Below, one piece after another: positions 2,942 through 64,000 of a stretch of DNA of 64,000 bases (position 1 is its first letter; the number at the start of each line of letters is the position of its first letter). The notes under the pieces are model-generated. The model ran no database searches. It had not been told where the DNA came from and saw only the letters and a program-made list of their open reading frames with translations. The position numbers and the translations under genes were made by a program. Source of the DNA: Eledone cirrhosa (lineage: Eukaryota); the NCBI GenBank assembly GCA_964016885.1, contig OZ024759.1:35774001-35838000 (forward strand), written 5' to 3'.

Positions 2942-3008
2942 TATTTTATTATACATATTTCAGAGGTACTGAGTTAACTTCAACAGTACGTCCTCATCAG
3001 ATAAAATA
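2942..3008 (-). ncRNA. Type I hammerhead ribozyme motif (family A)
   Basis: tattttat-CTGATGA-ggacgtactg...cagtacctct-GAA-ATAtgTAT-A-ataaaata; 8-bp stem I. Confidence 0.7.
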
Positions 3009-6000
3009 AGAATGAATATTAATAACTCTGGAAAACCTTTTTTCTAGTTGAGTGCTTCCAATCTATTGTAAAACTCATTCTTTGATGTATTCATTGAACC
3101 TTGTTTAACTTTAAAAAAATATATATATAGAGAGAGAAAGAGAGAGAGAGAGAAAGAGAGAGAGAGAGAGAAAGAGAGAGAGAGAGAAAGAGAGAGAGAG
3201 AGAGAGAGAGAGAGAGAGAGAGAGAGAGAGAGAGAGATCAGAGTTAATAAAAACATCACCTTTATCCTTTGGTTTAATATCGTCATCCATATTGGTTTAC
3301 AGAAGTATTATATATTACGGAGGAGAAGAATGTATTATGGAGAGGATGGAGAAGAAAAAGTGTGTTGTTGCTGTTATCGTTGTTGTCGTCGTTTGATGAG
3401 GAACAACCGTGAGAGAGCAGGATGTGGTAAACTTCCTCCACCATATATACACACACACACACACACACTCTTATAAACACACACACACACACACTTATAT
3501 ACACATATACAGTACTGCAGTAGTGTGTGTGTGTGTGTTTATCAGTGTGGGGGTGTTTGTGTGTACGTGTGTGTGTTAGTGTATGTGTGTGTGGACGTGT
3601 GTGTGTGTGTGTGGACGTGTGTGTGTGGTTGTATGTGGACGTGTGTGAGTGTGTGTGTGTGTAAGTGTGTGTGTGTGGACGTGTGTGTGTGTGTGTGGTT
3701 GTATGTGGACGTGTGTGAGTGTGTGTGTGTATGTATGTTTGTGCCTGTGTATTAGTGTCTGTATGTGTATTGATAAGTTTATAATTTCAATTTGTTTACA
3801 CTATATCTAAGACTTCCCTGTACTCTTCCATAGCTTGCTATCCCAGAGTAAGACACTACTGATGATGAGTAATAACTCTGAAATATACCACCATCTTACA
3901 CCAATGTCGAGACAAAGCTGGGTATATGTAAGGGGTCCCCACAGTTAAAGAGATTTAGAAACGTGAAAAGGTGTTTTCCCTGTCAGACGAGAGGGCTAGG
4001 GTACTCCTGTCTGTTGGTCAGTAGTAGTAGTAACAGTAGTAGTAGTAGTAGTAGTAGTAGTAGTAGTAGTAGTAGTAGTAGTAGTAACAGCAACACAACG
4101 TGGTTTTGGAAAGTTTGTAGTGATGTGTGTGTCTTCAACAGCCTGCAGAGTCAGTCATTCATCATCAGCTGGTGGTATGGAATGGTATGGTATACAGTGA
4201 GGGGTGGTGGTGGTGTGACGTATCTGGTGATGGTGGTAGGTGTGGCAGTGGTGGTGGTGTACGTGTGGGGGAGGTGGTGGACAGCCTGCAGAGTCAGTCA
4301 TTCATCATCAGCTGCTGGTACAGTGTGCTGTAGCATGTGTGTGTCTCTAAGAAACACACACACACACACACACACACACACACACACACACACACGATCT
4401 CTAGTGGTGGTGGTGATGTTGTTGATAGTGATGGTGGTAGTGGTGATGGCTGTGGTGGTGGTGGTGGTGGTGATGGCTGTGGTGGGAGGAAGTGTTACGT
4501 TGACCAGCTGGTTCCTGTTTCTTCATCCAGCTCGAGTGTCTGGCATTCTCCGAGGAAAAGGTGACTTGGACAGACACACACACAATATATATATATATAT
4601 ATATATTACCCACTCTACTACCCTAAGTATTGAGTACTCTGGTGCGTTATGGTCCACCTGGTTCCTTACCACATTTCCTCCGTTATACATATATATATAT
4701 ATATATATATATATATATATGTCAATACCTAATAAATTCCTTTATAAAAGCACTTTCATTTTATATTCATCTTTTCTATATATATATATATATATATATA
4801 TATATATATATAAATAAATAAATAAATAAATAAATATATATATATAGAGAGAGAGAGAGAAAGAGAGAAAGAGAGAGAGAGAGACCAACAAATTAAATAA
4901 CTCTTTGCTTATATATATATATATATATATATATATATATATATATATATATATATACACACACACTCACAGACATACATGCAGCCACGGTGACGATGGT
5001 GTGGTGTGTTATATAAAAAGGTAAACATTACAGAAAGGTAAATATAAATTTGGAACAAATTACAAAAATCGATTTAGTAACTTAGGCCATAGCCGAGGTT
5101 AACTTTGCCTTTTATCCTTACGGGGTCGATAAAATAAAGTACCAGTAATACACTGGATGATTGCTGGCCTTGTGCCAAAAGTAGAAACAATTATTACAGG
5201 AATGGTTTCTATTTTAGGCACAAGGCGAGCAATTTTGGGGGAAGGGGAGGAAGTCGATTAAATCAAATCAGTACATTACTGGTATTTTATTTTATCGATC
5301 CCTGTCAGGATGAAAGACAAAACTAACCGCGGCAGGATTTGAAATCTGAATGTAAAGGGACGTAACTCTGTGATGCGGAGCATAATGTCCCACGCTCTAC
5401 CGATTATTACCAATGCACCTCCCTTAGTCTAATAACAACAACAATATAAGCCCATAAAACGAACAAAAATCGGCATCGAACCCAAATTATATTTTTGATT
5501 CCAGCTTTAAGATAATTATTTGCTGGTCGTTGCAAGTTTTTCCTGACCCAAAATAAAATTTTGTTTATTTTACATTTAAAAATAAATACACAAATTTTAA
5601 ATTTAATAATAACCTAAATGGACGGAATGGTCACAATCGGAATGTCTTTGCTCGTATGTCCGTTGATTAAGTATTAACCGATCGACATGGAGCTAAACAA
5701 CAACAAACATAACAACCGCTTGGCTGCCATATTTTGATGTCGTCTGCTTCAGACATTTTTCTCAGTTTATAAACAATTCAAGTATTTCCATAAAATTAGA
5801 AAAATGCTGTTAAAATTTTGGAGGGATTTTCTTTGAAATATTTCCGAGTTATTAAGTAAATACGCCCAAACGAAAATATATAATAAATATTTCAAATTAA
5901 TCTGTCCGATTACAATTTTCGACATTCCAATTTGATGGTCAATACTGACGTTCGACGCCTCTCACTTGCAAAGTCTACCACTTCCTTTTATTTCTGTAGC

Positions 6001-6727
6001 CCTAGATCCTTGATTTCCCCTTCCTTTTCCTCTCATTTATGGCTTTTGTAGTCCTTTCCTCTACTTTCCCACACAGCCAGATCTATCCTTTACTCCTTCC
6101 CCATTTGTATCGTTATTTATACAATTGTAAATAAAACTTCAAACAATTTCACCATTTGATAATACTAACAGTAGACACAAGGCCAACAATTTTCGGAGAA
6201 GGGAAAGACGATTAAATCGAACCCCCGCATGTTACTGGTACTTTATTATATTGACCCCCGTGAAGATGAAAAACAAAACTAACCTAGGTGGGAATTGAAA
6301 TTATAACTTTATGCCGTGAGCAGGGTGTCTGACGCTCTACCAATTCACTGCTCTGTCTTATAGTAATAATTTTAAATATATATATAAGTTCCACTTGAAA
6401 AAATATTTTTTAAATAATTGGACAAGGAAACCAGAGGGGAAATTCCTTCAAATTCTTTTCAAATAAACATTTTTGGGGGATATTTTAAATATTTATCGGA
6501 AATTTAAAGACATTCCTAAATTTAGGACTTCCACTGAAACTTTACTATTCATTATTTTATTGATGTAATTCTGTGAGAACAAAATAATCACCAACTGGAC
6601 AGGATAGGAGAACGTTAGCTAAAGTTAACCATTCTGATACTAAACTACCTGAAATGGATCCTGGTTCTAGGATTAAGAAGAAACTGTTTGTTTGAAAGTG
6701 TTTATAAGAGAGGAAAGGAGCAGGTCG

Positions 6728-6798
6728 TTAACTGTTGCTGGAGTTGTAGAGGCGCCATCCTGAGACAAGGGTGTCTAGGGGTATTTTAAGGTTGATTT
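6728..6798 (-). CDS. Candidate terminal coding exon of the plakin gene (EINLKIPLDTLVSGWRLYNSSNS*)
   Basis: CT-rich tract then acacag acceptor. Phase-1 joining gives 23 codons and a TAA; AATAAA lies about 170 nt downstream (near 6556-6561). No homology support. Confidence 0.35.
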
Positions 6799-62470: not shown

Positions 62471-62524
62471 AAGTTTACATTTTGTCAGAGGCCAGAATCA
62501 GTTGATTCAGGTTTATTTAAAACT

Positions 62525-62582
62525 CCGTTATACATATTTCACTGAGGACTATCAGTTATGATAGCCTGAGCTCTTCAGATGG
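62525..62582 (-). ncRNA. Type I hammerhead ribozyme motif (family A-like)
   Basis: ccat-CTGAAGA-gctcaggctatca(taac)tgatagtcctcagt-GAA-ATAtgTAT-A-acgg; one mismatch in stem I. Confidence 0.6.
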
Positions 62583-64000
62583 CAAAATCTATAAAAACTT
62601 GAAAACATTGAAGGTTTCTCAAAAACTTGGTCTGAAACTAACTGTTGAAACAGCAAGAGCTCATCCATCAGGCTCCAACTATTTCTAATATATATATATA
62701 TTAGTTCCTCTGGACTGAGAGTTCTACTTACTACGGATATAACCTCCAGGTGTTTTACCACTATATATATATATATATATATATAGTAATAATAATAAAT
62801 GTGAAGACTAAAATCCGAAGAGGGCTCGATAAGGATAAATATATATCAAATATATGTTTGTTTTAGAAGATCCTGTTATGGGTGAAAGCAGAAATTCTTT
62901 GCTTAAACTTTAATCTGTTATTTTTATAAATATATATATATATATATATATATAACAAAGGAATTGTGGTAAGGAACCAAATGGACCATAACGCACCTGA
63001 GTACTCAATACTTAGGGTAGTAGAGTGGGAAATAGATGTGTGTGTGTGTGTGTACTAGGGCTCAATATGATCAAATAAATCCCTTAAAAGTGGGGCCCTA
63101 GCAGGGCCAGATAAGGTCAGACCTGAGCCTCTAGCTTATATTATAAAGGGTCGTCATTTTTTTTTTTTTTTTTCCTAAATGTGACATTAGGGTTAAGGGA
63201 AATATAGTAGTGTAGTATGAAACAATTGTAGAGTCCCCCCTGAAAATATAGGGGACAAAATAGGGGGGAGGGGGGATATCAATTATTCCATATGTTACTA
63301 GGCTAATCCAGTTGTTTATGAGATGCAAATATAAGCCAGCTTTTATAAGATCACTCACACGTGTGTGTATGTGTGTGTGTGTATATGTGTGTGTGTATGT
63401 ATATGTGTGTATGTGTATATATATAGGTGTGTGTGTGTGTGTGTGTGTGTGTGTGTGTGTGATATTCTGGTCAATTGAGTAGAGAGGAATTAATACTACC
63501 ACTACTACTACAGTTACCACCAGCACAACTACTATTGCCACTACTACAACTAATAATAATAATACTACCATCATCATCATCAGCTGATGTATCCTGTAAT
63601 CCTCTGTATTAAGCCAAACACTCACAACACCCACTTCAGGACATCCTATAAATCAGGGAGACATCCACCCACATACATGTGTATACATACACACATATAC
63701 ATACATGTGTGAGTATACACACACACATATGCATACATGTGTATATATATCTACATACACATATATACATACATACATGTGTATATATATATATACATAC
63801 ACATATGCATATATACATACATACACATTTATTCGCATATATATATATATATATATCTACATATATATATATATACATATATATACACACTCACACACAG
63901 ATTGGCAGATATATACACACATATCTACACACGTATACGTACATGTATATATATATACACACACACACAAGTAGACATCAGTCAAAGCGGATTAATTGAT

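Follow-up and report, generated by a model that had tools for sequence, protein, structure and literature searches.

Introduction

Type I hammerhead ribozymes are carried by Penelope-like elements (PLEs) and by retrozymes, which are considered here beside a 64,000-nt stretch of the Eledone cirrhosa genome (assembly GCA_964016885.1, contig OZ024759.1, positions 35,774,001 to 35,838,000). This stretch (G000:C20:35,774,001-35,838,000 in a genome of 2.996 Gb) is called the window. It holds 13 hammerhead-type motifs, ten of which are very probably ends of PLEs of the Hydra clade.

The Hydra clade is described by Craig et al. 2021 (PMC8557442) through the motifs RW[KR] and DKT, a CxCX5C linker, CxxC and CxH around the nuclease residues E and N, and, at the C terminus, a GIY-YIG domain. 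These features, together with hammerheads in the pseudo-long terminal repeats (pLTRs), (TA)n targets, inverted 5′ copies, and tails, are common to the published clade and to the present elements. The supplement of the same paper includes Hydra-1_Obim from Octopus bimaculoides, which inserts at (TA)n. The published clade is small, with one octopus family without pLTR, whereas at least six subfamilies and more than 100,000 end pieces are found here. The present elements also differ in the 3.3-6 kb between hammerheads, in tails of about 65-90 nt, and in one family with A at core position 4 (U4A).

Cervera and De la Pena 2014 (PMC4209133) reported that truncated PLEs leave single hammerhead motifs dispersed in genomes, that one genome may have many families of them, that stem III is palindromic, and that pairs occur on opposite strands; all of these features recur in this genome. 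Poseidon of Anolis, studied in vitro by Frangieh et al. 2024 (PMC11167929), is alike in that two internal starts of reverse transcriptase (RT) 3′ of the hammerhead define a tail, both strands are cut and extended, targets are AT-rich, and the RNA template is uncleaved, features which for the present elements are deduced from DNA. Unlike them, it belongs to another clade, and the hammerhead itself contains the start of its open reading frame (ORF); in the present elements, the ATG follows about 195 nt downstream. Cap-ended stubs are not described in the available text of the Poseidon paper. Animal non-LTR (long terminal repeat) retrozymes (PMC7229834; bioRxiv 10.64898/2026.07.22.740005) share a type I hammerhead, the lack of an ORF, and a relation to PLEs with two of the present items, family D and an array on contig C28. 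Retrozymes are tandem units expressed as circles, whereas ten of the 13 window sites appear to be dispersed pieces of coding elements. In the axolotl, up to 120,000 retrozyme copies have been reported (PMC7229834).

Hammerhead Motifs of the Window

A sequence-only reading of the window had listed about a dozen hammerhead motifs from at least five families. A hammerhead-type motif is present at 13/13 of the places listed, and nine families or subfamilies (A1, A2, A3, B, C, D, E, F, and G) can be distinguished. The cores lie at 3000(-), 9841(+), 10514(-), 15392(-), 17738(-), 20255(+), 20594(-), 26283(+), 31552(+), 31800(+), 37947(+), 62578(-), and 62864(+); the coordinates of the sequence-only reading mark the motif edge and not the core. 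The window has a GC content of 36%, and 47.5% of it is tandem repeat. A strict type I descriptor recovers four sites (3000, 20255, 26283, and 31800) against a mean of 0-0.05 in dinucleotide shuffles (three sets of 60, 180 in total). A relaxed type I descriptor adds 17738, giving five sites against 0.05. Each of the remaining eight has a point mutation or a deletion, has been cut into by an inverted arm, or belongs to family E, whose normal core is CAGAAGA. Canonical CUGANGA, GAAA, and NUH boxes in type I order are retained at 9/13 sites, two sites are point-mutated, and two belong to the U4A family E.

Seven sites had been taken as intact and six as decayed, and both groups need some correction. 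Five of the seven pass the descriptor; an inverted arm has cost the site at 9841 most of its stem I, and that at 62578 has one stem I mismatch at a place where 4/7 other printed copies of the family have a G-C pair. Among the six, 10514, 37947, 20594, and 15392 are indeed mutated, deleted, or truncated members of families with intact cores. The core at 31552 is not decayed, being typical of family E, and 62864 has the family E core plus one private change. The absence of a Penelope RT ORF from the window was borne out: Pfam on 128 window ORFs gave no RT or GIY-YIG and only two unrelated sub-threshold matches, and tblastn of PLE proteins against the window gave no match.

Link with Hydra-Clade Penelope-Like Elements

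Six families, A1, A2, B, C, E, and G, which account for 10/13 sites, directly adjoin Hydra-clade RT/GIY-YIG ORFs at other places of the genome, on the upstream side, the downstream side, or both, as the sequence-only reading had asked to be checked. The masters were sought by fetching same-strand and inverted hammerhead pairs. Three full-length elements have hammerhead pLTRs on both sides of the ORF. In locus L081, family A2 hammerheads stand at both ends, 3.7 kb apart, with direct repeats 96.7% identical and a frameshifted ORF. In L121, family B hammerheads flank a 758-aa open frame with YRDD and YIG, a single ORF in the order RT to C-terminal GIY-YIG. In L165, the two family E hammerheads enclose a 645-aa open frame and are separated by 3.26 kb. 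Of the same-strand pairs spaced by 4.9-6 kb, that in L121 was a full-length element, whereas those in L080 and L120 were independent insertions. The remaining families are found downstream of similar ORFs, A1 and C at no fewer than two loci and G mainly at one; the ORF is of Hydra type for A1 in L085 and L137 and, upstream of the hammerhead, for G in L310.

The ORFs themselves carry the features of the clade. RWR and DKT occur in L121, L165, and L081; the CxCX5C linker in L121, L165, L083, L287, L310, and L137; and CxxC and CxH around the nuclease E and N in L121, L081, L310, and L137. CCHH, judged by eye, is absent from L121. Full-length homologs number 1,404, some with PF01541. Since these families flank PLE ORFs, their ten window sites are regarded as stubs of protein-coding elements. 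The window copies of A1, A2, B, C, E, and G are truncated by-products of coding elements and not separate non-autonomous elements, as had been supposed for all of them.

The first GIY-YIG search (10,597 first-look candidates) brought mainly Neptune-like and Penelope-like ORFs with other hammerheads than those of the window families. At L060, L062, L063, and L070, there are Neptune-like PLEs whose open frames are long (938 and 1096 aa from stop to stop), with further hammerhead families absent from the window. In L081 (4677-4990), the A2 core is preceded at 43 nt by a donor-like GGTATGT motif and the ORF by an acceptor-like TTTAG, so that the hammerhead of this element may lie in a retained intron of the 5′ untranslated region (UTR).

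Abundance in the Genome

Genome counts were made with exact family patterns, the same pattern read backwards serving as control. Family A gave 53,969 matches against 44, family B 31,118 against 10, family E 29,063 against 0, family C 12,908 against 0, and family F 4,664 against 0. The sum of the five patterns, 131,722 against 54, corresponds to one per 23 kb and is a lower bound; a few thousand of the family B matches derive from one array. For D, G, and A3, a DNA search gave 4,568, 2,033, and 2,235 first-look candidates, which are not copy numbers, and the exact D subfamily of the window has 37 genome matches. In three DNA runs, the contig depth of the hammerhead segment is about 1,000-fold above that of the 5′ ORF, this being a summed depth and not a copy number. 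A long array of repeated inverted CTGANGA pairs at G000:C1:15.97-16.05 Mb inflates the generic head-to-head count.

The estimate of one motif per 5 kb holds in the window but not beyond it. Motifs of the same families number 19 in the window, and a sample of 320 kb from other places (32 x 10 kb) likewise has 19, so that the window is about 5-fold richer than the sample, and the genome mean is about one per 17-23 kb. The descriptor finds 14 matches in the 320-kb sample against 0-1 in ten shuffles; the excess over dinucleotide shuffles that the sequence-only reading called for is thus seen both in the window and in the sample.

Anatomy of the Insertions

The copies end at two fixed points per family, 60-190 nt past the core, adjoining (TA)n; for the stubs, this distance is 60-160 nt. 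The distance of the 3′ end past the core has two sharp modes, at about 60 and 128 in family B, 65 and 155 in E, and 85 and 150 in C. Such bimodal ends at (TA)n are as predicted by the two internal RT starts and the tail of Poseidon (PMC11167929). Within 200 nt 3′ of the core, (TA)n is found in 8/10 of the first-listed genome copies of family A, 18/20 of B, 21/25 of E, and 24/25 of C (71/80 in total), against 18.5% by chance. In the window, (TA)5+ at the same distance is found at 6/13 sites, against 32% of random unmasked window positions. The statement that nearly all sites abut (TA)n was therefore too strong for the window, while the picture of an abundant and diverse set of type I hammerheads of Penelope pLTR type inserted at (TA)n stands genome-wide. 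With the ATG of families B and E situated about 195 nt beyond the core, the short copies are pure 5′ UTR.

At the other end, copies of families B and E pile up at a single 5′ position, A-6 in B and A-5 in E. Family B has promoter-like elements, namely, a CCAAT box, a TATA box 36 nt before the core, and a CCAGATT resembling an initiator (Inr) at -6. The exact TATA box is kept in only 5,045/31,118 family B matches. The fetched loci, in which pairs are over-represented, contain 47 family B copies; the upstream sequence retained is at most 7 nt in 28 (one of them a divergent promoter-bearing copy), 45 nt or more in 17, and in between in two. Head-to-head joins with at most 12 nt between cores number about 4,800 against 1 in the control, with a few from related families. 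In the 2014 survey (PMC4209133), pairs were 100-700 bp apart, whereas thousands are joined here within 12 nt.

An extra G at the 5′ end is established in other retroelements as a mark of cap copying. Family E has 2,734 copies without the genomic T at -6, and the first 100 of them have 56 G, 23 A, and 21 C (G makes up 19% of the genome). Of 30 loci with such -6 variants, 28 are truncated at that point, and 14/19 G cases are not templatable by the inverted arm. In family B1, G is found in 79 of the first 100, but this G is also expected from fold-back, so that only family E tests the cap cleanly. An extra G is present on both arms of some head-to-head joins (L203, L205, and L206). The window copy of family E at 31547 begins exactly at A-5 and is preceded by A, not G.

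Structure of the Hammerheads and Core Variants

Compensatory changes in stems I-III are seen within and between families, so the stem covariation which the sequence-only reading had proposed to look for is present. The first stem I pair is formed in 78/83 copies of family A (TA 66, CG 11), 72/76 of B, 58/60 of E, 13/13 of D, and 8/8 of G. Position 15.2-16.2 is T-A, C-G, or G-C depending on the family, as fixed by the search patterns used. The stems of families C and F were read by eye and not by the covariation script.

The core of family E is CAGAAGA in 94 of the first 100 matches, and the same U4A change is present in its full-length master L165; this family thus lacks the conserved U4. The change also creates an acceptor-like TTTCAG sequence. 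In families B and E, a U.U stands in place of the G10.1-C11.1 pair at the base of stem II; it was imposed by the search patterns, and it is visible in the masters L121 and L165. Family A has a C.C mismatch in 82/89 copies. These variants depart from the conserved G10.1-C11.1 of the 2014 survey (PMC4209133). A U.U at the base of stem II is also found in the hammerhead 3′ of an unrelated Neptune-like ORF (L063, L064, L067, and L072).

Family D and the 78-bp Family B Array

Family D is a non-coding unit 685 bp in length, which has a terminal repeat of 43 bp, inverted arms, and no long ORF. In the manner of retrozymes, it is not attached to an ORF, as A1, A2, B, C, E, and G are. Tandem dimers occur at L406 and L407, that is, at 2/37 exact-match places; the window has no tandem hammerhead units. 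The possibility that D is the pLTR of an L070-type PLE was rejected, as the L070 element has its own hammerhead-like motif about 420 nt after the stop. Family D is likely a separate non-coding passenger moved by PLE enzymes, and it is at this one site of 13 (26283) that the non-autonomous, retrozyme-like interpretation of the sequence-only reading fits.

A tandem array of the family B hammerhead with a 78-bp unit extends on contig C28 from 30,496,800 to at least 30,852,000 (L365-L372), which gives at least 355 kb if it is continuous between the eight sampled stretches. Intact cores are present in 109/156 of the units counted, and the array begins at a head-to-head PLE-type insertion. Short head-to-tail family B junctions number only 2,395, nearly all in one array. 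The C28 array may be described as a retrozyme-like satellite. A small 78-bp array is also found at C1:350,200,287.

Proposed Mechanism and Alternative Explanations

A single account is proposed for these observations. The GIY-YIG nuclease would cut (TA)n on both strands, and RT primed by the cut (TA)n would start inside the RNA at two fixed sites. Transcription would start 5-6 nt before the core (A-6 in B, A-5 in E). Priming on the 5′ copy of the start site and copying back to the cap would give a promoterless stub ending in a copy of the cap. Both DNA ends would be extended and joined by microhomology into palindromic head-to-head pairs, whereas longer copies would result from priming at the 3′ pLTR and random truncation. 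Without a TATA box, the family B stubs would be dead on arrival. Since the whole core is kept in the copies, the template RNA would not have been cut by the ribozyme, in agreement with the in vitro finding that cleavage is not needed for Poseidon (PMC11167929). The account as a whole, in which ten of the 13 sites are PLE end pieces and many of the shortest pieces are likely complementary DNA (cDNA) copied from no more than the first 70-165 nt of a capped and uncleaved messenger RNA, is probable. For the origin of the stubs from a capped and uncleaved 5′ end taken alone, the balance of the junctions leans moderately in favor.

Several points weigh against parts of this account. The ORF links of C and G hold at family level only, and no master ORF was found for A3 and F in 15 and 25 loci, respectively. 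Pfam did not detect the RT domain (RVT_1) on the Hydra-type ORFs, and the GIY-YIG of L081 scores 22.4 bits against a cut-off of 22.6. From shared motifs and domain order, placement in the Hydra clade is probable. As for the 5′ ends, the extra G of B1 equals the base that stem I fold-back would give in 21/21 cases. Family E has no TATA at the matching place, its upstream sequence resembles a 3′ splice site, and, of the first 25 copies, 17 retain upstream sequence or differ in length from a clean stub; start-site stubs are a minority in this family. Family A junctions spread from about -35 to -95 and cluster near -75 to -85. Start site, cap, and non-cleavage are all read from DNA junctions only.

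The main rival of the cap reading holds that the copies are ordinary 5′-truncated PLE insertions primed at the 3′ pLTR, and that stalling of RT or fold-back of the cDNA at stem I has produced the pile-up at -5/-6. Indeed, the copies pile up just where the 5′ strand of stem I lies, the extra G of B1, often with the next T too, matches fold-back, and at least one locus (L231) is a clear fold-back. This rival is nevertheless unlikely, as fold-back predicts A in family E, yet G is the commonest base; the position in B is the start expected from the TATA at -36 and the Inr-like motif; and the extra G stands on both arms in the three head-to-head joins named above. It seems less probable still that the short copies represent ribozyme-bearing retroelements in their own right, non-autonomous and independent (either dispersed retrozymes or units resembling short interspersed nuclear elements, SINEs), transcribed, self-cleaving, and mobilised in trans by PLE enzymes. 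The 685-bp unit of family D, with its terminal repeat, its lack of a long ORF, and its dimers, fits this explanation, as do the 40 loci of A3 and F without ORF and the array of at least 355 kb on C28. Against it, A1, A2, B, C, E, and G run on into PLE ORFs, the exact TATA survives in only about one in six family B matches, and short head-to-tail B junctions are nearly confined to one array. Moreover, the whole core is kept, and a cleaved or circular monomer would not give a 5′ end at a fixed 5-6 nt from it.

That the motifs are chance matches in low-complexity DNA has a negligible probability. The window is rich in tandem repeats, and CTGANGA alone occurs 30 times against 21-25 in shuffles. 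The Rfam search of the window returned no hammerhead family at gathering score nor among the best 150 of 409 E-value matches, a list dominated by microsatellite matches, and minimum-energy folds of single copies mostly miss the three-way junction. Conversely, the descriptor excess in the window and in the 320-kb sample, genome counts thousands of times those of the controls, and stems which covary within and between families refute the chance reading.

Beyond the account preferred above, a broader proposal can be put forward tentatively. Transcription of Hydra-clade PLEs may begin at the stem I 5′ strand, and messenger RNA that is capped and uncleaved may give rise to "strong-stop" cDNA insertions, lacking a promoter, in great numbers. 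Cleavage would then be dispensable in vivo, and the fold would have another role at the RNA 5′ end. One stub would have grown into the 355-kb, 78-bp ribozyme satellite, a retrozyme-like array born from a PLE insertion.

Individual Sites and Other Repeats of the Window

The five sites passing the descriptor belong to four families or subfamilies. The family A1 PLE end at 2890..3129 (-) has an intact type I hammerhead (core 3000, predicted cleavage after 2950) with (TA)n on both sides. The family B stub at 17595..17744 (-), inside (TA)n, has an intact hammerhead (core 17738) with U.U closing stem II and starts about 6 nt before the core. Two A2 ends are intact: that at 20159..20466 (+), with a tail (core 20255, predicted cleavage after 20300), has 79-82% identity to the L081 pLTRs, and that at 31713..31901 (+) (core 31800, predicted cleavage after 31849) has 85%. 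The family D site at 26052..26640 (+) is a 5′-truncated copy of the 685-bp unit, with an intact hammerhead (core 26283, predicted cleavage after 26349), a short inverted tail piece, and a (TA)n end.

Among the other sites, the family C stub at 9734..9930 (+) has its core (9841) after an inverted copy of its own 3′ end, a stem I of 3 bp, and a (TA)n end, and the family C end at 20435..20605 (-) has internal deletions in stem II (core 20594). The family G end at 10370..10612 (-) has a mutated core CTGATAA at 10514 (CTGAYGA in other copies) and a palindromic stem III. The family B stub at 15323..15393 (-) has lost its 5′ end at core 15392 and lacks the stem I 5′ strand. The tailed family E stub at 31547..31716 (+) (core 31552, CAGAAGA) starts exactly at the A five bases before the core, the putative transcription start, and the second family E stub, at 62786..62930 (+) (core 62864), has its tail inverted at the 5′ side and (TA)n on both sides. 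The family F end at 37884..38080 (+) is a minimal hammerhead with the core at 37947 mutated to CTGATTA, and the family A3 end at 62485..62628 (-) has its core at 62578 with one stem I mismatch; no master was found for either. A family B head-to-head pair at 31285..31447 (.), absent from the list of the sequence-only reading, has both cores deleted. Further pieces are a decayed family B remnant at 649..708 (+), a family B remnant of inverted pieces without core at 57107..57202 (.), and a family E tail alone at 13246..13328 (+) between (TA)n tracts.

Two candidates were rejected. CTGACGA at 17881 is a chance match inside a different repeat whose copies are without core, and 3859 failed the descriptor and has no relatives among the fetched loci. 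Other repeats include a 5S ribosomal RNA-like copy at 41360-41479 (-) (81 bits, several mispairs), either a pseudogene or the head of a 5S-derived SINE. An abundant dispersed family of SINE size without hammerhead is found at 5092-5418, 9379-9472, 41007-41155, 53602-53733, and 57865-58016, and a second, likewise abundant, at 16740-16980, 22634-22854, 25728-25887, 30124-30345, 36374-36712, 42538-42727, and 59749-60125.

Novelty and Biological Meaning

PLE hammerheads scattered at (TA)n are already known, and the present elements are further members of this group. The literature searched, which left out most subscription papers, contained nothing on how abundant hammerheads are in octopuses, on PLE stubs that end at a cap, or on U4A cores in nature, and in the available text of an Octopus vulgaris repeat annotation (PMC13282606), "ribozyme" and "Hydra" have 0 occurrences. 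The present load, the start-site and cap signature, the high-copy family with U4A and U.U, and the 78-bp family B array were not found in that literature, although U4A and U.U variants may already be in print.

With at least 131,000 motifs in 3.0 Gb, the load exceeds more than 10-fold the 2,000-9,000 minimal hammerheads per genome of 2014 (PMC4209133). The role of the hammerhead in PLEs is described as an open question (PMC8557442, PMC11167929). In this regard, the genome holds tens of thousands of natural insertion records, which suggest that transcription starts at the ribozyme and that the templates are uncleaved; in one very successful family, the catalytic core is altered. If the broader proposal is true, this U4A family of 29,000 copies would show that cleavage is dispensable in vivo. 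The natural copies and the open 758-aa ORF make the start-site model directly testable.

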